Virus record (IMG/VR): IMGVR_UViG_3300021255_004427
Span: 128,001 to 192,000 of that record
Origin: a virus
Taxonomy: Duplodnaviria > Caudoviricetes
Strand: one strand, 5' to 3'
DNA: 64,000 bases
Part shown: positions 5,367 through 54,072 of the stretch, piece by piece
Numbering within the stretch: position 1 is the stretch's first letter
Layout: each line of letters starts with the position of its first letter
Notes under the pieces: model-generated
The model's input: the letters and a program-made list of their open reading frames with translations, nothing else
The model's database searches: none
Told to the model about the DNA's origin: nothing
Program-made: the position numbers and the translations under genes

Positions 5367-5942
5367 TTGCAATCTAATAATCAAAACATCAATCATCTCG
5401 AATTTTGGGCCAACCAGAAAGATATTTTGACGGGCACCTTGAACGCGATGCAGACTGAAAGACTGGAGAACGCTGTAAAGAAGCTCTATTATCCTGAATT
5501 GCAGCAGTTTGTTGTTCTGGTTCTGACCCGTAAGGTTGAAGAAGATGGCGAAATCGAAGATGCCTTGGGCGCATTTGAGTTAGGCGTAAGATACTTTACC
5601 GAGCGCGGGTATTACTACGAAATGGCCCCCAATAAGCAGACGTGCACATTCTTAGCGTCACTCCTTCTGCATAACGTATACTTCAATCACCATATCCATA
5701 ACGCTTTTGATTGGCTCAGAGTTTTCAAACTCCGTGACGAAACCGAAGGCCTGGCTTATGCGCTTTATGAAATAATGGAATATAATGACCGCGGCATGTT
5801 TGAATTTGTATATCAGAATGTTGAAGCTCAGCTGGGCGAAGCAATGCCAACACCGGGCAACCGTCCGGTTCGCGGTCAGAATACGGAGCATTTCTGGAAC
5901 GTGCTCTGGTTCTATTATCATGGCACACATTCGAAATGGTAA
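5367..5942 (+). CDS. Hypothetical protein, possibly a degenerate HD-domain fold
   Basis: 191 aa with GGAGG RBS. ASLLLHNV resembles AxLLHD, with D replaced by N. Confidence 0.6.
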   Translation: MQSNNQNINHLEFWANQKDILTGTLNAMQTERLENAVKKLYYPELQQFVVLVLTRKVEEDGEIEDALGAFELGVRYFTERGYYYEMAPNKQTCTFLASLLLHNVYFNHHIHNAFDWLRVFKLRDETEGLAYALYEIMEYNDRGMFEFVYQNVEAQLGEAMPTPGNRPVRGQNTEHFWNVLWFYYHGTHSKW

Positions 5943-6664
5943 TTGAAATAACAGAAGAACAGCTTTTTGATTACATGAACTGTCCGGTGCGGTATGCCAT
6001 AAAATATGGCAAGAATCATATCAAAGTACCGCCGCAGATAACTTTTCCAAAGCTGTTAAATCAGGTTGTGTATGGATTTTGTCAGTCGCTAAAGGACGGC
6101 ATTGTGCTGCCGCCCGATAAAATAAAGCGAAAATGGGACACGGTTTGTAAAAATCATCCCGACAAAATCACCCAGGATAAAATCCGTGAAGGATTCGGGG
6201 CTCTGTATAGGTTTTATGAGTATGCAGAGGAAAACCAAATACTGGTTGCGGATATTGGTTCTCCCTATATCCTTCGCGTTAAAGATGGAGACGACACATA
6301 CATTTATAACGGAACATTGGGGATAATCCTGTCTAACAAAGATGGTGAGCCGGAAAATTTCAAAACAGATTTTTCCAGCAGGTTTCCAGAGCAAAGCAAA
6401 CTGGATATGAATCTCAAGACCACGCTTGACCATGTAGGTTTTTATAAACTCTACAATTTGCCACTGAGTGGAACCCGGGTTCACCATGTAAAAAAGAGCC
6501 GGGATTTTTATACCACCCGCGATATTCCAAGCTCAACAAAAAGAGTAAGGACAATAATCGCTAATGTCTGTAAGTCAATAAGACATAATATCTGGTATCC
6601 TCACGAGACCCCGTTGTGTTCTTCCTGTGAAGTAAGAGATTTTTGTATGATGTATGGCTCCTGA
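5936..6664 (+). CDS. Cas4/AddB-like PD-(D/E)XK-fold protein with an Fe-S cysteine staple, active site apparently degenerate
   Basis: N-terminal CP..Y and C-terminal WYP....CSSC..RDFC. GTLGII and ENFKT stand where GxID and DYKT are expected. Confidence 0.7.
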   Translation: MVIEITEEQLFDYMNCPVRYAIKYGKNHIKVPPQITFPKLLNQVVYGFCQSLKDGIVLPPDKIKRKWDTVCKNHPDKITQDKIREGFGALYRFYEYAEENQILVADIGSPYILRVKDGDDTYIYNGTLGIILSNKDGEPENFKTDFSSRFPEQSKLDMNLKTTLDHVGFYKLYNLPLSGTRVHHVKKSRDFYTTRDIPSSTKRVRTIIANVCKSIRHNIWYPHETPLCSSCEVRDFCMMYGS

Positions 6665-41211: not shown

Positions 41212-41247
41212 TAACTGTGGGTAAACAGTAAGACAATAGCACAGTTA
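41212..41247 (+). repeat. 36-bp site A (inverted partner of site B at 50808)
   Basis: taactgtgggtaaacagtaagacaatagcacagtta, 32/36 identical to the reverse complement of 50808-50843. Confidence 0.85.
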
Positions 41248-41361
41248 CGATTCGAGACCGTAAAGTCAAATGCTCAACACAAAATAGCGTATCCACTTCA
41301 AGGTAATGTAACCAACGAAGAGCGGAATAGGCCGCTCTGGTATTAAGAAAGGCGGTTTTTA

Positions 41362-41976
41362 ATGTCTCACGTAGTAAGTAAATATGAACTGCAGCATGTA
41401 ACCGTGGATGAGCTCCGTCAGATGGCATCTGATTACCGGGAAAGCATCTGGGCACAGGCACAGTCTGCCGGCCATGAACCGAAGATCTACCTCCACTGGA
41501 CGGCTGGCCACTTTGGTCAGTTTTGGGATGATTATCATGTCCAGATAGATGAAGATGGTGAAATCTATGTCTATGGTGCTCTGGATGATGTTTTGGCCCA
41601 TACTTGGCGCCGTAATACCGGTGCTATCGGTGTAACGCTCTTGTGTGGTTACCAGGCCAATACTTCCGACCTTGGTCCAGAAGCTCCGACCGAAGCACAG
41701 ATTGAATCCATGGCTCGTGCCGTAGAAGCATTGGCTGATGGCCTGTGGCTGACTATCAGCAAAGAATTCGTCGCTACCCATGGCGAGGCAGCAGACAACG
41801 AATGCAATGACTGGTGTCATGAAGAGTATGGCCCGAAGTCAACCTGTGAACGCTGGGATTTGGAATACCTGCAGACAGATGAAAGCCCGAAATTCAATCC
41901 CTGGGCAGAAGATGGTTCCCGCGGCGGCGACGTAATCCGTGGTAAGGCTAACTGGTATCGCAATCAGCGCGGTTAA
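41362..41976 (+). CDS. N-acetylmuramoyl-L-alanine amidase (Amidase_2-like endolysin)
   Basis: IYLHWTAG, YH..ID.DG.I, AHTWRRNTGAIG, PT.AQI and THGE motifs. Confidence 0.88.
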   Translation: MSHVVSKYELQHVTVDELRQMASDYRESIWAQAQSAGHEPKIYLHWTAGHFGQFWDDYHVQIDEDGEIYVYGALDDVLAHTWRRNTGAIGVTLLCGYQANTSDLGPEAPTEAQIESMARAVEALADGLWLTISKEFVATHGEAADNECNDWCHEEYGPKSTCERWDLEYLQTDESPKFNPWAEDGSRGGDVIRGKANWYRNQRG

Positions 41977-41990
41977 GAGAGGTAAACAAT

Positions 41991-42593
41991 ATGTCAGTAT
42001 TTGACCTTTCCCATTGGCAACCGGCAAACCGTATCGAAGAGCTGGTCGAAGGCGGAAATTGCGACGGCGTTATCCTGAAGCTTGGGGAACGCAATGTAAA
42101 AACCGGTGAAATTGAACTTGATCCGATGTTTATCACTCATGTAAACGAGGCGGTCCGTTTTGGCCTGCCCTATGGTATCTATATCATGGGCCGTGCAAAT
42201 AATGAAAATGAAGCTTTGGAAGAAGCTCAATGGGTAAACGATCGTGTAGCTGAACTCCTGAACGGACAGGAACCTGCACTGGGCACATGGTTTGACCTGG
42301 AACGGCCAGAAGTAAAACGGGATGGCGTTTATGAAGATTATCGTTTTGCAATTCTCCACTTAAGTGATTGGTGGGGTGGCAGCCATAAAATCGGTATCTA
42401 CGCATCCTACTTATACTTTGAGGGCTATCTGGATATCGGTAATATGGCGGCAAACAGCATCCCCGTCTGGAATGCCCAGTATGGTTTTGTAGATTCCATG
42501 CGCCAAAACTATCCATATATCAAAACAGTCTTGTGGCAGTTTACGAAAAACGACGATTATCAGGATGAGAATGTGTGGTACGGCTGGTATTAA
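41991..42593 (+). CDS. GH25 muramidase endolysin
   Basis: FDLSHWQ, VILKLG, YGIY, WFDLE (DxE), GIYAS, VWNAQY and LWQFT. Confidence 0.9.
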   Translation: MSVFDLSHWQPANRIEELVEGGNCDGVILKLGERNVKTGEIELDPMFITHVNEAVRFGLPYGIYIMGRANNENEALEEAQWVNDRVAELLNGQEPALGTWFDLERPEVKRDGVYEDYRFAILHLSDWWGGSHKIGIYASYLYFEGYLDIGNMAANSIPVWNAQYGFVDSMRQNYPYIKTVLWQFTKNDDYQDENVWYGWY

Positions 42594-42660
42594 GCCGCCC
42601 GCAAAATAATATAAGTGCCCCTAAGTGGGCGCTTATTTTGTAAAGAAAGGAAAAACAAGT

Positions 42661-43218
42661 ATGGATTTTCTAAAGAAACACAGTAAGACTATCATGGCCA
42701 TAATCATTGTAGTATTAATAGCTGCGCTCATAAGGTTAACTTTTTTTAAAAAAATACCCGAGCCGGAAATAGTAACCGTACCCGAGGTATCCCAAAAAAA
42801 TCTCCAACAGTATTTCCCTATGGAGACAAAAGCTACTGTGAAAGATATGACGCACCAAATCCAGCGTGCAAAAGAAACTCAGACTCCGCAATACCGCTAT
42901 TATACCGCGACACAGCAAGAGGCGGATAATAAGGCCAAAGAGTATGGTAATGTGCAGAAGGCAGACAAAATCGTAAAAGAGACACATAAAGTTGAAGTCA
43001 AGGATGATAACGGCAATAAGACCCATGTTATCGAAAATGACTACTATGCGATTAATCTCGAACGAAAACACCGCATTAAAACCGGCGCGGCAATGATTGA
43101 TCATGACGCTTATGTTACGGTCGGATATCAAAACCGGAATGTGGAATACAAGGCCTACTACGCACCTACAGCCAATAAGGCGGGAGTTGGTGTAGAGGTT
43201 ACAATTGCAAAATGGTGA
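42661..43218 (+). CDS. Lysis-cassette envelope protein, spanin candidate
   Basis: N-terminal TM helix, polar stalk and four C-terminal amphipathic strands ending in Trp. Confidence 0.55.
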   Translation: MDFLKKHSKTIMAIIIVVLIAALIRLTFFKKIPEPEIVTVPEVSQKNLQQYFPMETKATVKDMTHQIQRAKETQTPQYRYYTATQQEADNKAKEYGNVQKADKIVKETHKVEVKDDNGNKTHVIENDYYAINLERKHRIKTGAAMIDHDAYVTVGYQNRNVEYKAYYAPTANKAGVGVEVTIAKW

Positions 43219-43230
43219 GGAAAGAATACT

Positions 43231-43794
43231 ATGCTTAGAAGAATACCAGGATTAAGTAAAATGTTTAACGGCGGGACGCGTACAGTGGGTGATATGCCAA
43301 ACCTTTTCCAGTTTCCGGAGTATGCGCCAGGAGACGCATTAAAACAGTATAAAGGTGGCGGCTCGTATCTGTTTAACGCTAAACTGAGGGAAGGGATTCC
43401 TCTCGACGCACAGGACAAGGCACTACAAAGAGGCTTAGATCGTGACCTGAACGCTCTACCAGACTATCAGGAGCCGACATTCAGGTCGTATGATTTCCTT
43501 GATCAGGAAAGTTTAAGCGAATTTTTAGAGCAGCATAAACCCGGCCATATGGTGCAGTATCCTGCTTACACATCATCCGCCAAAAGTCCTAATGCATACT
43601 ACGCTCCGAACGGAACGGGCATGCAGGCACTGATGAAAATTAATGGCAAACATGGAAAAGACTTAGCACACGTAGAATCCGCCTCAAACAATGAGCAGGA
43701 AGTGCTGTTTGGACGAAAATCTATGTTCAGGGTTAATAATATTGGGTATTCCCCTGAGATGAAGACTTATTTTGGCGAAATGGACGAAATATAA
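43231..43794 (+). CDS. Stand-alone ADP-ribosyltransferase (VIP2/Alt-like, R-S-E clade)
   Basis: Y...SY..N..LR, TFRS (Arg), YPAYTSSA (STS-like) and NEQEVLF.R...FRV (ExE). Confidence 0.88.
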   Translation: MLRRIPGLSKMFNGGTRTVGDMPNLFQFPEYAPGDALKQYKGGGSYLFNAKLREGIPLDAQDKALQRGLDRDLNALPDYQEPTFRSYDFLDQESLSEFLEQHKPGHMVQYPAYTSSAKSPNAYYAPNGTGMQALMKINGKHGKDLAHVESASNNEQEVLFGRKSMFRVNNIGYSPEMKTYFGEMDEI

Positions 43795-44780
43795 TCCGCC
43801 ACCAAACTTTTATACTTGTCAAGAACAGAGCATGATATATGGCTAGGTATCTCGTATTGTGCTCCAAATATATTACCCGCAATGGAGGCAACGGTATCGC
43901 TGTCTCCATTTATATTTGCGGCGCGATTTATACAAGTATATATCCTATCGCCTGAGAGTATATGATAGAGAGCGAGGCCCAAAGCATTTGGTCCAATCCA
44001 GGCATCTCCAAAAGCGCCATAAAAAGTACGAAACGCAGATGTGCCTTTAGTATCGGCACACGTTATGGCGTTGTATACGTAGTTATACGTTTCATTGAGG
44101 GGAAGCGTCATAAGTTCTCCAATACGTTCAAGATAGGACTTGTAAAATTCCAGGGCTGATAACAGAGCCGTTTTTACATCCATGTTATCACGAAGCAAGA
44201 AAAAGATAATTAGCGAAAATACGCCCGCGCTGCGCCATGCTTCTTTATGACCATGCGTAATTGCCGCGCACCGCATGGATAACTCAAAAACATATTCCGG
44301 CGGCTCGTTAATCAGAAAGCCGAACGGGGCAGAGCGCATAACGGTGCCATTCCCCAGACTTTCGTTATACTGCTTATTAAGTGTCCCCATGCAACCGGAG
44401 CGCAGAGAGTCAATACAGGCATGGCCAGGAGCCCGCATAACATATAAATCATCTATTTTCCATAGCTCGCCTACGTGGGCTATTTTTTCGTCTATGGCTC
44501 CGGGGCCATACTGCGTATTAAACCAACGGAGATATGATTCGTACATAATTTGCACACGCTCATCCATCGATTTACCCTGACTGAGTGCTAACCCCTCAAG
44601 CGTAAACAATGTCATCTGGGTATCATCTGTGATGGCATCTCCTGGATTTAGCTCCTGCTTACCCTGCTCGCCATATTGCGATCTGATTTCGTCCAGGGAC
44701 ATCATTTCTAGGTCAGAACCAAAGGCATCTCCATAGGCCCCGTATAAAATACATCGATACATTCTATCCTGTTTAGTCAC
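43767..44780 (-). CDS. ADP-ribosylglycohydrolase (DraG/ARH/Tri1 family)
   Basis: GDAFG..LE, ITDDTQMT, GNGTVMRSAP, ITHGH and NGDSDTVASIAG.I.GA. Confidence 0.95.
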   Translation of the reverse strand: MTKQDRMYRCILYGAYGDAFGSDLEMMSLDEIRSQYGEQGKQELNPGDAITDDTQMTLFTLEGLALSQGKSMDERVQIMYESYLRWFNTQYGPGAIDEKIAHVGELWKIDDLYVMRAPGHACIDSLRSGCMGTLNKQYNESLGNGTVMRSAPFGFLINEPPEYVFELSMRCAAITHGHKEAWRSAGVFSLIIFFLLRDNMDVKTALLSALEFYKSYLERIGELMTLPLNETYNYVYNAITCADTKGTSAFRTFYGAFGDAWIGPNALGLALYHILSGDRIYTCINRAANINGDSDTVASIAGNIFGAQYEIPSHISCSVLDKYKSLVADYISSISPK

Positions 44781-44825
44781 CTTACCACCGCCCTTCTAAG
44801 CTACACGCTTGCCTGATTTAAAATA

Positions 44826-44834
44826 ATTATATCA
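44826..44834 (-). promoter_or_regulatory. Extended -10 SigA promoter for the ARH gene
   Basis: Minus strand reads TGaTATAAT about 46 nt upstream of the GTG, just downstream of a terminator hairpin (about 44846-44879). Confidence 0.6.
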
Positions 44835-44899
44835 CGCTGAAAGAGAAAACAAAAGCACCGGGGCTTTGCCCCGGCGCTTCCGTATTGTGAGTATGTGGT

Positions 44900-45145
44900 T
44901 CAGATGTAGACATCCTGTCTGTAAAGATCCTCTTGTCCAAATGGGTCGGCAATGCCATTTTCTTCCAATTGTTCCAGGCGGCACATATTCTTGTAGCGCA
45001 AATCCTGGTTCTCTAAGAGCAGCTGTGTTATATCCTCCCGTTCCCTGAGAGTCAGGTAACGGAATGTGTCAGCCACGAGCAAGCGAATATCTTCTGTTGA
45101 CAACTGTGTAATTAGGTCCATAATCTTCTCTCTGGAGTCCTGCAC
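44900..45145 (-). CDS. Small hypothetical protein divergent from the repressor
   Basis: GGAGGGA RBS and GTG at 45145, 81 aa. Confidence 0.65.
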   Translation of the reverse strand: MQDSREKIMDLITQLSTEDIRLLVADTFRYLTLREREDITQLLLENQDLRYKNMCRLEQLEENGIADPFGQEDLYRQDVYI

Positions 45146-45337
45146 AAAAATCCCTCCGTTTGTGCGCATGGCGCGGGTTAGCGCTATTGCGTAATCGAAT
45201 TTAGCAACTCGGCGAAGGCTATATATGTGAAATCGGATTACACATATATGGTAGCACGTCTGCGCCAAAAAATCAATGTGTAACTTGCGGAAAACGATTA
45301 AACAAACAAAACTGTCACCCCTTTTTCGATAATAAGC

Positions 45338-45444
45338 TTGCAGTGTGCGCCACCGTATGCTAAAATGAAATCAACTTCAAAATAACATGCGAATATGCAA
45401 CAGCTTGCATAACTGATTGTAACTTGTTGCATGAGATTTGTCAA
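45338..45444. promoter_or_regulatory. Face-to-face SigA promoters with two palindromic operators
   Basis: + strand TTGCAG(45338)-17-TAAAAT(45361). - strand TTGACA(45444)-17-TACAAT(45421-45416). Operators atgcaa-cagc-ttgcat (45395) and ttgtaa-cttg-ttgcat (45417). Confidence 0.75.
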
Positions 45445-45458
45445 TAGGGGGTGAAACC

Positions 45459-45872
45459 TTGAATTTTGCAGAAAAATTAAAAGCGCTCCGAAAGAAGAAG
45501 GGGTGGACGCAAAGGGAGGTAGCAGAAAAAATTGGTGTTTCTCCGAGAACTTACGCGTCTTATGAATTGGAGGGGCGAGAACCGAAAGATATAGACAAAT
45601 ATTATGCCCTGGCCGAAACATTCGGAGTTTCAAGAGATTACTTTATAGAAGCGTCTAAAAATATTACAAGAATTAATATTGTCGATATGTTTCATGGAAT
45701 AGGGGGTACATCCGATAGAGATAGAAATCATAAAATAGCAAAAAATCTCACAAGCGAACTTGTAACACTCTTCATGGAGCGGCGTTTAAGCTCTACAGTT
45801 CGCGATGAAATAGCTAAAAGAGTTATGGACGCATATTGGGAAGCCAGAAAGGAGGACGAGTCATGCTTATAG
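45459..45872 (+). CDS. Xre/Cro-CI family HTH repressor
   Basis: FAEKLKALRKKKGWTQREVAEKIGVSPRTYASYELEGREP...LAETFGVSRDYF. Confidence 0.92.
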   Translation: MNFAEKLKALRKKKGWTQREVAEKIGVSPRTYASYELEGREPKDIDKYYALAETFGVSRDYFIEASKNITRINIVDMFHGIGGTSDRDRNHKIAKNLTSELVTLFMERRLSSTVRDEIAKRVMDAYWEARKEDESCL

Positions 45873-46339
45873 ATGATTATAAAAAACTCTTAAAAAGTTT
45901 TTACATTGACTATTTTATGCATGTAAGAACATCCATGCGCGAAGCGTTTAGCGAGCTTAAAATGAAGACCCAGATAACACTTGAAAAAAATAGGGTTGAC
46001 CAAAATGAGCTTATGCGTAAAATGGCTACAGGCGAAATGCTTAGCGAAGAGCAAGAAAAAGCAATGAAAGAAATTCTGAATATTGTAAATAAAACCGATG
46101 AGACAAAAATGATCGATATTTGGATTCTTGTAAGAAAGAGGAAAAAAGTTAAGAAATTAAATTTTATAACATATATTGGGTATGGAGAAGAGGCAGTAAA
46201 CGAAGCAAAAAACATTCTTGGGGATAATGCGGAAATTGTAAGAAAAGATGGAACTACGTATATAAAAAACAAAAAAACTAATGAAACAATATATGTTTAT
46301 CCGTTGCGGGAAGTCGTTTGCCCCTTTGAAAATAAATAG
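45863..46339 (+). CDS. Hypothetical protein
   Basis: AAGGAGG RBS and ATG at 45863, AT-rich. Confidence 0.75.
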   Translation: MLIDDYKKLLKSFYIDYFMHVRTSMREAFSELKMKTQITLEKNRVDQNELMRKMATGEMLSEEQEKAMKEILNIVNKTDETKMIDIWILVRKRKKVKKLNFITYIGYGEEAVNEAKNILGDNAEIVRKDGTTYIKNKKTNETIYVYPLREVVCPFENK

Positions 46340-46650
46340 AAGTCGCCCCCACTTCAAACGCGAAGCGTTAAGTGGGGGCGCTCGGTAAAACATAGATATG
46401 ATGAAATGGTCAGGTAAAAAATCTTACAGCCAGTATCGCGGCAGTCATTAAGACCAGGTAAACGAGCAGTGCAGTGGAAAGATCGGAGTCACTTCTTGCA
46501 TCCTTAAAAGTGATTGATGTTATCAACCATAATATAATCACTTCTACAAAGATGAAAGAGAAAATGCCGAAAGGAAGAGAGGCGGCATTTTTCTCTCTAA
46601 TCTAAAGAGGCTGATAATTAAGAAAAAGGAGAATAGTATAAAAAGAGATA

Positions 46651-46714
46651 ATATTGTAAATATATCCAACTGTGGTTAACGACAATTACACACAGTTGGA
46701 TATATTTACAATAT
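46651..46714. repeat. Perfect 24-bp inverted repeat (site C) upstream of the recombinase
   Basis: atattgtaaatatatccaactgtg-16 bp-cacagttggatatatttacaatat. Confidence 0.95.
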
Positions 46715-50807: not shown

Positions 50808-50843
50808 TAACTGTGTCATTGTATCACTGTTTACCCACAGTTA
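50808..50843 (-). repeat. 36-bp site B (inverted partner of site A)
   Basis: Minus strand reads taactgtgggtaaacagtgatacaatgacacagtta. Confidence 0.85.
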
Positions 50844-50892: not shown

Positions 50893-53800
50893 TTATTGCA
50901 TGCAAAGCTGCATGACCTTATTGCTTGCTTCATTTGCCTTTTGCTGATATTCTTTGTACTGGGCATACTCTTGCGGCCTATTCTGCGCCGCCCACTGAAT
51001 AACCCATGTTTTGCCAGATGCGTTAGGATCGTTCTGAATTGCAGACTCCCAACCGGCGAATAGAGTATCTGCTTTTTTCGTGTAATCATCCATGATTTTT
51101 TCGTACTGTTTTATCTGAGCGCGCTTTTCTTTTTCAGCTGCTTCATTGAAAACAGGTTCAGGGTTAACACCCTTATTATTTGTCTTTTCTATCTGCTTAC
51201 CTACAGATGTCTCTTTTGATACATTTATCGAGTTTAACAGCTTCCATACAGTTTTGGGGTCTACAAACGAGCCGTTTTTATCTTGCACGCGTAAAATGAA
51301 ATTATCATTGCACGTCGCGCAGATTTCCCCTTTGCTTATGTTTTGCTTGTTAGCGTCTTTGCTGAGTTTGTCTTCGCTAAGCCCTGCGAAGATGTATGTG
51401 TAACCAGAATGTCTGCTTGTCATCTTAATGTACTTGCCAATAGCCTCATCAGATAATATTCCGGCTCCATCACAATCTTCTGGTGCATGAACACTAATTT
51501 CCGCACTGCACTTGAATACCAACGCATTAGATACGACTCCTACGCCAGAACCAGCATTTGCAACGCCAAAATCTTGAATCCAGTATACGTTATTCAAATC
51601 TTTTGTTGGTATTGGGAAATCCATACCTTCTTCTTGATTTGCAAGCTGTGACAATCCAGTATTTGCAGCATCGATAATCTGGTAGGCCTGAACGACAGCT
51701 GGGAAAAATTCCGGATCGCTGCTCGCCTCTTCGAGGGCTTTTCTCCATTCCCAGTTATACATGCGGGTACTGTTATTGTTCCCGTTGCTACTGTTACTAC
51801 TGTCGTCATTGTTCATGGGGGCGCTCATAAGTTTAGCCAGCCCATCGCTCCATTTTTTATATGCCGTAACAGGCGCAATGGAATTCCCATTAAAGGTATA
51901 TTGCTCTGAGAGCTTTTTTAGCTCTTTAACGCCGGCCTCTATCTGTCCTTCTATTGCGCCGCTATTCGTACCGAATAATCCTTGGGCGGGGTCACCATTA
52001 CTGATAACCGCAATAACTGCCATCGCGAGAAGTGGGTCGATTTTATTTTCGCCGGCAATACGTTGAAGCGTTTGCTCATATCCATTGAGCTTCAGATTTT
52101 TAACAGCTTCTTCCGCCCTTGCCTTACCATTGGATAAACCTGCAGATATTGATTCTTTTGCTTTTGGCCACCAAATCTTCATCTCTTGCTTCTTTTTATC
52201 ACCAGTAGTATTTGAAGAACTGTTATTGCCAGTTCCACTATTGTCTTTTGGGTCGTATTTCCCAGCAAGAACATCATCCATGAACTGCTTGTGTCCATCA
52301 ATAGATGATTTATAATCACCTGGATTAATAGAAACTGTAGGTGTAAGACCGGATGAGCCTGGTCCATTTGCCAGCTGGTAAGAGGATAACTTTTCCGGAG
52401 ATTTGTCATCGGAATTAATATCCTGCCGCCAGTTAATCTGCGGCTTTTGCTGCTCTACCGGAGTGAGCTTCCATCCCATCTTGACACCATCATCCCACTG
52501 ATCTTTAAATGGACGTTCGTTCTGGTCTCTCGTGCTAGTAGTCTTATAGTTAAGCTGATAATCCAGTTTTTTATCATGCATTTGTTCGATGCGCAGGAAG
52601 TTTATGTAGTCTTCCATATTCATCATACCAGCCTGAATATCGTCCTGAATATTGGCAAGGTTGGCGCCGACCTCATTAAGAATATCGTATGTGGCTCCAA
52701 TGATAGGCTCGTAACGCGAACAGGAAAGGCATTGATCAAGCTGCATAACTTGCCCATCTTCCAGAAGATTATCTTTTAAACACCGGATACATACGTATTT
52801 GGAGCGATGGTCTGTTCCTCCCCAATAGACACAATTGACGTGCATTCTCTTACCAATTGCAAAAGTGTATCTGAGTACGGTCGACAACACGTTTTCTAAC
52901 TTAACAAGGCGCTTCTCGGTAAAATCTGATAATGTCAATATTGCCGAGGCGAGTTCTTTTGTTTCCATGTGATCTCTCGTATATGGAAGTCTGTACTGTT
53001 TTACTCGAGGCGCGTGGTTTTCCAATTCTTCTATTTTAAGATCGACGGGGAATGGGTCATTATTATTTAACGGTTTTCCTGCGCTGGGCACTTTGACCTC
53101 GCTAATGGAATTTTGTGGATCAAACGGTCTTTGCGCAAGTTTTTGTGCCTGATCTGTTGTAAACGCATTACCATTAATCCCCATTAAGTCCTGCATGGTT
53201 TGACTGGTCATAATACCGTAGTCGCCAGTCTGGTCCATATTATTCATACCATTAACGGCAGTGGTTTCTACAACAGTGTTAGGGATATTCCCCTGCACGT
53301 AAACAAAGTCTGGATAAACCGGTTCGCAGTACGTTTTTCCTTTTGGATTAATCTCCACCCAGCCAACATGATCGGCTATGTTATTATTTGCCGGCCCGAG
53401 GGCTTTATTCATTGCTCCGCCCGCAGGATTTGTGCCGCCTTCAGCCTGAGACTGTGCATTGAAGTTTGGCTTGATGCCATCATGGGAGGTTGTCGGTATC
53501 CACCAATCGCATACGCCGCCGTCTGCAAGTACGGTTTCCAAATCCCAATGGTAATCATCACCATTTTTATTGCGTGAGCCTCCCTGGTTTGGGTCATTAA
53601 TTATAAGCCCCTGGTTATCCAGCTTTGCATAAACAATATAATGGCCGCCGCCAGTAAAGAGTCCATCACCATGGGCTGCAATAACAGGAAATCCTGCTTT
53701 CAATGCTTCTCTTACAGGGGCCGGATCATTTACATATTTGAATTCTACGCCGTATGACGGGCCTCTGTCCTGAAATGCGGTATGGTCTGTGCCCTGTCCT

Positions 53801-54072
53801 AACACTCTATGGCCAGACTGAACAAAATCATCTGCAACCATGTCCGGCGTTACGTTTTTCCCGTACCATGCACATACCATAGCAAAGGAGGTTGGGCCGC
53901 AGCCGGAAGTACAAACTGTAGACCCATCACTACCATAAGGATGGTCCGCCCAGCGTTTATCCCACTGATGGTACAGGGGAACTCCCGACGAATTTCCCTG
54001 TGAACTAGGGGCATTGGTGTTTTGCTTATTGTCTTCTGGCTTGGTAGATGTATTATTATTCGTATCCGGCAA
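50893..54072 (-). CDS. Large virion/tail-hub-like protein: C39-like peptidase plus degenerate SLT-like and M23-like domains
   Basis: YHQWD.RW...Y, SGCGPTS.AMV, GHYIV and NDP (C39_2). IDPLLAMAVIAVISNGDP (SLT-like). VHAPEDC..GKYIKM....YTYIFAGL (M23-like). Confidence 0.75.
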   Translation of the reverse strand: MPDTNNNTSTKPEDNKQNTNAPSSQGNSSGVPLYHQWDKRWADHPYGSDGSTVCTSGCGPTSFAMVCAWYGKNVTPDMVADDFVQSGHRVLGQGTDHTAFQDRGPSYGVEFKYVNDPAPVREALKAGFPVIAAHGDGLFTGGGHYIVYAKLDNQGLIINDPNQGGSRNKNGDDYHWDLETVLADGGVCDWWIPTTSHDGIKPNFNAQSQAEGGTNPAGGAMNKALGPANNNIADHVGWVEINPKGKTYCEPVYPDFVYVQGNIPNTVVETTAVNGMNNMDQTGDYGIMTSQTMQDLMGINGNAFTTDQAQKLAQRPFDPQNSISEVKVPSAGKPLNNNDPFPVDLKIEELENHAPRVKQYRLPYTRDHMETKELASAILTLSDFTEKRLVKLENVLSTVLRYTFAIGKRMHVNCVYWGGTDHRSKYVCIRCLKDNLLEDGQVMQLDQCLSCSRYEPIIGATYDILNEVGANLANIQDDIQAGMMNMEDYINFLRIEQMHDKKLDYQLNYKTTSTRDQNERPFKDQWDDGVKMGWKLTPVEQQKPQINWRQDINSDDKSPEKLSSYQLANGPGSSGLTPTVSINPGDYKSSIDGHKQFMDDVLAGKYDPKDNSGTGNNSSSNTTGDKKKQEMKIWWPKAKESISAGLSNGKARAEEAVKNLKLNGYEQTLQRIAGENKIDPLLAMAVIAVISNGDPAQGLFGTNSGAIEGQIEAGVKELKKLSEQYTFNGNSIAPVTAYKKWSDGLAKLMSAPMNNDDSSNSSNGNNNSTRMYNWEWRKALEEASSDPEFFPAVVQAYQIIDAANTGLSQLANQEEGMDFPIPTKDLNNVYWIQDFGVANAGSGVGVVSNALVFKCSAEISVHAPEDCDGAGILSDEAIGKYIKMTSRHSGYTYIFAGLSEDKLSKDANKQNISKGEICATCNDNFILRVQDKNGSFVDPKTVWKLLNSINVSKETSVGKQIEKTNNKGVNPEPVFNEAAEKEKRAQIKQYEKIMDDYTKKADTLFAGWESAIQNDPNASGKTWVIQWAAQNRPQEYAQYKEYQQKANEASNKVMQLCMQ

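Follow-up and report, generated by a model that had tools for sequence, protein, structure and literature searches.

Phage ADP-ribosylating toxins that are paired with hydrolase antidotes have been shown experimentally only recently. Specifically, Bxa is an antibacterial prophage MuF-type ADP-ribosyltransferase (ART) from Bacteroides stercoris, and the adjoining ARH1-like ADP-ribosylhydrolase (ARH) BAH neutralizes this toxin purely by hydrolysis (Alexei et al. 2024, PMC11699363). BAH did not co-purify with the toxin, and Bxa is also countered by a small binding protein, Bsi (PMC11699363). In the Tre1/Tri1 system of Serratia proteamaculans an antibacterial type VI secretion system (T6SS) ART effector is paired with a bifunctional immunity protein (PDB 6DRE/6DRH; reviewed in PMC8120803) whose N-terminal extension plugs Tre1 (PMC8120803). 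Pairs of an ART and an ADP-ribosylglycohydrolase from Aeromonas phages have been predicted computationally to form toxin-antitoxin systems (Iyer, Burroughs, Anand, Aravind 2022, PMC9503650), and MuF toxins have been described with small immunity proteins (PMC5576092). We analyzed a 64,000-nucleotide stretch of DNA (the window) that comprises bases 128001-192000 of the IMG/VR record IMGVR_UViG_3300021255_004427, a linear Caudoviricetes record of 224 kb with 95% completeness according to IMG/VR. The window codes for a 187-aa ART at the end of a row of lysis genes and, on the opposite strand and overlapping its 3' end, for a 337-aa ARH. The original prediction, which was made from the sequence alone, described these genes as a linked writer-eraser pair with matching chemistry, and this holds for an ExE-type ART next to a DraG-type ARH. 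Of the functions that it listed, toxin-immunity fits best, and we conclude that the pair is probably a toxin with an enzymatic antidote, similar to Tre1/Tri1 or Bxa/BAH, that a large phage carries as an exchangeable accessory cassette.

The ART gene (43231-43794, + strand) codes for a stand-alone R-S-ExE ADP-ribosyltransferase that is a predicted toxin, as seen from a match to PF03496, its motifs and its modelled fold. The match to PF03496 scores 26.1 bits (curated cut-off 23.4; E 6.2e-6), or 24.3 bits in the genome-wide search, and phrog_595, a 'head maturation protease/minor head protein' family that has members with toxin tips, is matched more strongly near its C-terminus (profile positions 360-497 of 513, E 2e-14). 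In alignments with ExoT and Tre1, the TFRS, YTSSA and EQE segments fall on the R, STS and ExE motifs, respectively. Residues R85, S115, E155 and E157 are invariant in a five-sequence family alignment, and in an 18-sequence alignment S115, E155 and E157 are invariant with R85 nearly so. The AlphaFold2 model has a predicted local distance difference test (pLDDT) score of 85.3 with residues 1-18 disordered, and its best solved fold in Foldseek is that of Tre1 (6drh/6dre; E 4e-11, root-mean-square deviation 2.0-2.1 Å over 153 columns, 24% identity). The next matches are C3, ExoS/T and Vis, with all of these matches, Tre1 included, given in the fold test as ranging from E 1e-10 to 1e-9. By sequence ART is closest to the toxin tips that MuF head proteins carry, and a tblastn search against phages found the minor head proteins of phiCD24-1, Lj771 and DLP4 as distant matches only. 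The same type of search with both ART and ARH returned distant matches only, with no phage record containing both. At 187 aa the protein comprises the ART domain only, with no N-terminal MuF head-protein domain and no extra domain found by Pfam, and both PF04233 (MuF) and a second PF03496 gene are absent from the whole 224-kb record. Between the window and a related locus, L035, the ART gene has 89 nucleotide differences that result in 13 amino-acid changes (ratio of nonsynonymous to synonymous substitution rates, dN/dS, 0.027). Where it is kept, ART is under strong purifying selection.

The ARH gene (43767-44780, - strand) codes for a DraG/Tri1-type hydrolase that is the predicted enzymatic antidote. 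It matches PF03747 with 167 bits (E 8.9e-49, residues 10-309), and its sequence matches in the PDB are 2cwc (a Thermus ARH), DraG 2woe (E 2.5e-9) and Tri1 6dre_A (E 4e-7). Its GTG start aligns with the ATG start of ARH in the related locus L005, and it keeps the motifs GDAFG..E25, TDDT (D52, D53, T54) and GDSDT (D293, D295). Residues D18, E25, D52, D53, T54, H176, D293 and D295 are all invariant in 20 homologues, including those from loci that lack an ART, and dN/dS between the window and L035 is 0.075. Residue 11 of ARH aligns with residue 76 of Tri1, so the ~65-residue N-terminal extension of Tri1 has no counterpart here. Because it is without this plug, ARH most likely works as an enzyme in the manner of BAH. 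A predicted ARH-ART complex gave a median score of 0.32 (runs 0.27, 0.62 and 0.32) versus 0.00 for the best of three controls, with a partner pLDDT of at least 78 and 48% or more of the contacts shared between runs, for a rating of weak support. When the tool was calibrated, 58 of 80 solved complexes and 2 of 110 mismatched pairs passed its mark, and scores at or below 0.60 were obtained by only 7 of the 80 solved complexes plus both of the mismatches that passed. This prediction, whose pass may reflect memory of the already solved Tre1-Tri1 complex, is used neither for nor against binding.

Relatives of both proteins were gathered from IMG/VR, GTDB genomes and a collection of metagenome proteins. 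Six lineages with known gene context have a stand-alone ART of this subfamily (31-93% identity), and in all six an ARH adjoins it, in three different orientations. Specifically, the two genes are convergent with a 28-bp overlap in the window, L003, L035 and two ENA contigs (ERZ1029116 and ERZ1029112), convergent with a 4-bp overlap in L012/L013 and with a 10-bp overlap in L128, divergent in L014, and co-directional with ART first in L126/L127. The ART of L012 is an intact 198-aa open reading frame (5812-6408, - strand) that is convergent with ARH and was not called in the source annotation; surveys of called proteins therefore undercount such pairs. In contrast to the ARTs, ARH is found without a working ART in four lineages. 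L005 has an intact ARH and no ART, while L011 and L010 retain ART stubs of 12 and 41 codons, respectively, which are the codons that overlap the 3' end of ARH. In L006-L009 ART is a pseudogene that is interrupted by two in-frame stops and has lost 41 codons in a deletion that includes the catalytic Arg. In all of these ART-less or decayed loci ARH is an open frame that keeps every catalytic residue, and its N-terminal half has a dN of 0.08-0.10 with dS saturated. Thus, the linkage is asymmetric, with a stand-alone ART of this subfamily always accompanied by ARH and with ARH able to exist as an orphan.

A toxin and its antidote would be expected to show just this pattern, in which ART is not kept without its partner and ARH persists by itself. 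The ART remnants at the 3' end of ARH in L006-L011 further show that the pair is ancestral in these loci and that ART was lost rather than gained. The original prediction had counted independent occurrence of the two genes across relatives against a functional pair, and such independence was found in one direction only, namely ARH without ART (L005, L010, L011 and the pseudogene loci L006-L009), with no stand-alone ART of the subfamily occurring without ARH. This asymmetric outcome supports a toxin-antidote logic rather than refuting it, and it agrees with a toxin-antidote pair in the general sense, namely a toxin that never occurs without the antidote and an antidote that can be an orphan; the distant ARTs of L027/L028, which are taken up below, are a caveat. 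The relatives form a natural loss series in which ART goes from an intact gene to a pseudogene, a stub and a clean deletion while the antidote persists throughout, and this series serves as compact comparative evidence both for this logic and for orphan immunity genes on phages and plasmids.

When set beside the described systems, the locus shares with Bxa/BAH (judged from the description of Bxa) a phage-borne R-S-E-type ART from the domain family that forms the tips of MuF toxins, as well as an adjoining ARH-family hydrolase that likewise has no occluding extension. It differs in that ART is a stand-alone 187-aa protein with no MuF carrier or MuF gene in the genome, that it lies behind endolysins rather than in a packaging module, that the two genes are convergent and overlap, and that no small Bsi-like second immunity gene is evident. 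Relative to the MuF-toxin type (Jamet 2017), the toxin domain is homologous but the MuF domain and the co-directional downstream immunity gene have no equivalent here, and among the ART-ARH lineages the immunity gene is co-directional only in L126/L127. As for Tre1/Tri1, Tre1 is the best structural match of ART and Tri1 is a significant sequence match of ARH, an R-S-ExE ART again adjoins a DraG-like eraser, and the Tre1/Tri1 logic includes protection by orphan Tri1-like ARHs in the absence of the toxin. However, there is no PAAR or T6SS delivery in the phage lysis-row context seen here, ARH has no N-terminal active-site plug, and ART and Tre1 are only 24% identical. DraT/DraG comprises the same two enzyme classes, with DraG being a significant match of ARH, but it regulates one defined target (nitrogenase reductase) in diazotrophs, whereas the locus described here has no nitrogenase context and an ART that is dispensable and decays. 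A likeness to T4 Alt/ModA/ModB, which had also been proposed, holds at the level of the R-S-E class, the T4 enzymes being R-S-E ARTs of a phage that act on arginines of host proteins, and does not extend further, as no Alt/Mod family is among the PHROG matches. T4 Alt is packaged in the head through a targeting sequence, and no Alt-like head-targeting sequence was identified in ART. To our knowledge T4 also has no ARH paired with these enzymes. The Aeromonas phage pairs are similar in being a predicted phage ART and ADP-ribosylglycohydrolase that are read as a macromolecule-modifying toxin-antitoxin system, and differ in phage group. Finally, a type II toxin-antitoxin operon is not matched, since the genes are convergent, with ART in a lysis row and ARH behind its own upstream region and a terminator.

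Given these precedents (Bxa/BAH, PMC11699363; Tre1/Tri1, PMC8120803; Aeromonas phages, PMC9503650), the novelty of a phage writer-eraser module was overstated in the original prediction. The principle of a phage ART toxin with an ARH antidote is already known, so the locus is not a new principle and does not overturn current understanding. Its distinctive features are an ART that has no carrier and lies behind endolysins, a convergent overlap that is conserved, a clear loss series and an ARH that evolves at two speeds. The locus extends the theme to a toxin without a carrier, to a lysis-row position and to an uncultured large phage whose replication genes are of plasmid type.

In the wider ART family, relatives at 30-36% identity are either C-terminal domains of 400-1000-aa proteins or modules within giant proteins of 2250-2688 aa. 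The former are MuF-type, with P0128 and P0130 carrying both PF04233 and PF03496, and no ARH is present within 5 kb of either the MuF-type or the giant-protein relatives. A scan of GTDB genomes with the ART alignment found only MuF-type and giant-protein relatives at 30-34% identity, none with an ARH within 5 kb, and provided no host assignment. By analogy with the described MuF toxins, these ARH-less ARTs presumably use small non-enzymatic immunity proteins. The ART domains inside giant open reading frames are located on the IMG/VR contigs L032 (2337-10400, 2688 aa) and L033 (3-6752, 2250 aa), with L032 derived from sample 3300021426, which is also the source of the near-identical relative of the window. 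Among 79 other phage ARH loci in IMG/VR, ~7 are directly preceded by a co-directional ART-family domain, which in some cases lies at the end of a ~1000-aa protein. Overall, ART-ARH linkage recurs in phages, yet it is a minority arrangement for both families.

A comparison of the window with L005 shows how the cassette is exchanged relative to its surroundings. The flanks are nearly the same in the two genomes (amino-acid identity of 99.7% for the integrase, 97% for orf572, 98.5% for orf133, 98% for orf94 and 99% for GH25), while within a hypervariable block identity falls to 78% for the membrane protein, 65% for ARH, 50% for orf122, 65% for the helix-turn-helix (HTH) regulator and 36% for orf167. 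In blastn the segment 43220-44238, which contains ART and the 3' half of ARH, has no DNA counterpart in L005, and the 5' half of ARH is 93.5% identical to L005 at the DNA level. This indicates that the ART indel is part of a recombinational swap with a breakpoint inside ARH. The mosaic is reversed between the window and L035, where dS is 0.24 for the C-half of ARH, 1.41 for the N-half and 1.34 for ART. Recombination breakpoints are located within the ARH gene. The whole-gene dN/dS of 0.31 for ARH relative to L005 was considered as a sign of relaxed selection and rejected, as analysis of the two halves showed the gene to be a mosaic. Across all lineage pairs, residues 1-180 of ARH are 84-95% identical and residues 181-330 are 29-56% identical, with dN being ~0.08 in the N-half and 0.5-0.7 in the C-half (dS saturated in both), so the C-half evolves ~7-fold faster even though GDSDT, an invariant metal site, is located there. 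Its speed may stem from cassette swapping, from a recognition surface that is under diversifying selection, or from both. With its very conserved catalytic N-half and its hypervariable C-half, ARH lends itself to tests of how such hydrolases acquire specificity.

The block of reduced identity as a whole spans window positions 43220-46500, from the C-terminus of the membrane protein to orf167, and resembles an immunity-region swap. Its remaining part (44900-46339) holds orf122 (- strand), an HTH_3 regulator (45438-45872, + strand) and orf167 (+ strand), which are 36-65% identical to L005. An integrase-family recombinase and the HTH regulator are 0.7-2 kb from ARH, and the 224-kb record has its own Rep3-type (plasmid-like) replication initiator (G000:C1:59857-60297, - strand) outside of the window. 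In other relatives ARH, with or without ART remnants, adjoins Rep3-type initiators, ParA, a resolvase and Fic. For these reasons the ART/ARH cassette belongs to the accessory 'immunity-region' type of DNA that is common to large temperate or plasmid-like phages and to plasmids. The Rep3 gene together with the plasmid-type ARH neighborhoods suggests either a phage-plasmid lifestyle or exchange with plasmids, and the phage that carries the pair is probably temperate or plasmid-like.

In the toxin-antidote mechanism that we favor, ART would be an arginine-directed mono-ADP-ribosyltransferase of Tre1/C3/ExoS fold, with the same kind of domain that other phages fuse to a MuF head protein, and the arginine acceptor is suggested by its ExE motif together with its DraG-type partner. 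As a stand-alone protein that is transcribed with the endolysin row, ART would presumably be made late, a timing that follows from its place in this row. It might act in the producing cell, be released at lysis or travel with the virion. A packaged ART, a lysis timer, a host-type promoter for ARH and antisense cross-regulation of the two genes, all raised in the original prediction, are conjectures. The separate region upstream of ARH on the other strand suggests that ARH is expressed independently, possibly in the carrier state, where it would strip ADP-ribose from modified proteins and thereby shield the carrier cell from leaky or incoming ART. Retention of orphan ARHs likewise suggests protection against ARTs that come from elsewhere.

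Several observations weigh against this mechanism. The toxicity, activity and target of ART are predictions from sequence, ART has no recognizable trafficking, packaging or secretion domain, and with no MuF protein in the genome its delivery to another cell is without an evident carrier. The genes are convergent and do not form an operon, which is unusual for toxin-immunity and toxin-antitoxin pairs and makes their co-expression less than certain. As for the linkage, most relatives were found via ARH and on short contigs, so there is an ascertainment effect, and the stand-alone ART of L027/L028, which is more distant (30% identity), lacks an ARH within 5 kb. In addition, for ~70 of the 79 IMG/VR phage loci with an ARH, no ART of this family is nearby, indicating that ARHs have roles that are independent of such ARTs.

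An alternative is that the pair constitutes a regulatory writer-eraser switch that acts on phage or host proteins in the way that T4 Alt/ModA/ModB or DraT/DraG do. Such a late ART would reprogram or shut down a host process around lysis and ARH would time or reset this modification, with neither gene being a conflict 'toxin'. The position of ART as the last gene of the endolysin row, which it joins with a 12-nt spacing and its own Shine-Dalgarno sequence, is congruent with a switch, as are the separate putative promoter of ARH on the other strand, the convergent overlap that is conserved in several lineages and could couple expression, and a R-S-ExE plus DraG-type chemistry that fits DraT/DraG (PMC8120803). 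Nevertheless we regard a switch as unlikely, since ART is dispensable, as seen by its absence from L005 with flanks that are 97-99.7% identical and by its repeated decay, and since mutual dependence would cost both parts, yet ARH is always kept. The pair is also present outside of lysis rows and in other orientations (L014, L126), and Alt/Mod proteins are missing from the PHROG matches. The retention of ARH could instead mean that ARH is primarily a protective or counter-defence gene that is directed against host ARTs or those of competing phages and plasmids, where it would erase the ADP-ribosylation that they make, with ART a secondary passenger in some lineages. This would explain why ARH is intact and under purifying selection without ART in both phage and Rep3 plasmid-like contexts, why most phage ARH loci have no ART of this family, and why the C-half of ARH evolves fast, as expected in an arms race; orphan antitoxin-like enzymes are moreover documented as phage counter-defences (PMC11825919). 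Such a primary role for ARH is nonetheless doubtful in our estimation, given that the ART remnants in L006-L011 reveal an ancestral pair from which ART was lost and that every stand-alone ART of the subfamily has an adjoining ARH. It is also not opposed to the toxin-antidote mechanism, as a toxin-immunity system leaves an orphan immunity gene behind. Thus, the repeated loss of ART alone, together with its remnants, disfavors both of these alternatives.

That two unrelated accessory genes merely came to lie side by side by chance in a variable region is extremely improbable. The region is indeed a recombination hot spot that is mosaic relative to both L005 and L035, but adjacency is found in six lineages, down to 31% ART identity and in three orientations, and the two biochemical activities are complementary. 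Chance would require a single recent transfer, which the divergence levels exclude. A more elaborate idea, to which we assign a low probability, is that ART and the fast C-half of ARH form a polymorphic, recombining specificity cassette that is used in phage-versus-phage exclusion by reversible ADP-ribosylation. If so, the conserved N-half of ARH and the lysis genes would act as recombination handles, and each ARH C-half would recognize its own ART or the products of that ART. The late, carrier-less ART would be loaded into virions or released at lysis, resident or orphan ARHs would decide which competing jumbo phages or plasmids establish, and the conserved overlap would tie together the expression of both genes.

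The overlap of the two 3' ends covers 28 bp on both strands (43767-43794), with ART ending in FGEMDEI and ARH in YISSISPK ahead of their stop codons, just as the original prediction had described for a complete DraG/ARH gene on the - strand. The same 28-bp overlap is present in L035 and in the ENA contigs ERZ1029116 and ERZ1029112, where it is known from gene coordinates and where ART is 56% and ARH 62% identical to the proteins of the window. It also persists as a remnant in L006-L011 where ART has decayed. This recurrence, both in the 56%-identical contigs and L035 and as remnants, argues that the overlap is more than chance, and as speculation it could couple the expression of both genes by transcriptional interference. 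An extended -10 promoter had been proposed for ARH, and the corresponding element, TGATATAAT, is indeed present on the - strand (44834-44826), 45 nt before the ARH start. It is not conserved, however, as the upstream regions of the relatives are AT-rich and unrelated in sequence, and it therefore remains a consensus match only. A terminator-like hairpin of 16 pairs plus a T run (44883-44849, - strand) lies between ARH and the upstream - strand gene, which it closes, while the sole terminator-like site for the + strand transcript lies within the ARH gene (44462-44483).

The upstream gene, orf122 (44900-45268, - strand), was considered as a Bsi-like second immunity gene. It was rejected as a member of the cassette for want of evidence, as a strong terminator lies between it and ARH, its conservation in L005 is only 50%, and searches of other loci, L035 among them, did not find it. 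Between orf122 (- strand) and the HTH regulator (+ strand), at 45097-45444, there are two near-consensus sigma-70-like promoters (11 of 12 matches) that face each other. The + strand promoter lies within orf122, ~310 nt upstream of the HTH start, in an arrangement that resembles a small genetic switch.

The row that ART terminates begins with an Amidase_2 gene (41362-41976, + strand) and a GH25 gene (41991-42593, + strand), both of which have Pfam and PHROG matches, followed by a gene for a 197-aa, N-terminally anchored membrane protein (42625-43218, + strand) that matches phrog_10797, a family listed there with unknown function, and that had been considered a spanin candidate. These three co-directional genes (41362-43218, + strand) form a tight row with ART, with intergenic gaps of 12-31 nt throughout, and ART starts 12 nt past the membrane-protein gene with a GAGGA Shine-Dalgarno sequence ahead of it. 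Both the coordinates and the catalytic motifs that had been given for a 187-aa R-S-E ART as the last + strand gene behind these three were borne out. In L005 the same row is present without ART and runs directly into ARH. At L035 (2793-3555) the membrane protein is mostly deleted and the called 214-aa product is a fragment of it fused in frame to ART, so the membrane protein is dispensable in at least one relative.

A megablast search of window positions 41300-45300 against GenBank phages gave zero matches, indicating that there is no cultured close relative, and in IMG/VR a single contig is near-identical to the window. Two 36-nt inverted repeats (41212-41247 and 50808-50843) that are 89% complementary bracket a 9.6-kb block that contains the lysis genes, ART/ARH, the HTH regulator and the tyrosine recombinase, and both of these outer sites are found in L005 as well. 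A 29-nt palindrome with the related AACTGTGG core is present (46651-46714) upstream of the tyrosine recombinase. The repeats and the palindrome may mark a segment that can be inverted or excised, or they may be a set of sites for a recombinase. Just beyond this block, a gene on the - strand (50896-54072) codes for a 1059-aa protein with a Peptidase_C39-like domain at its N-terminus.

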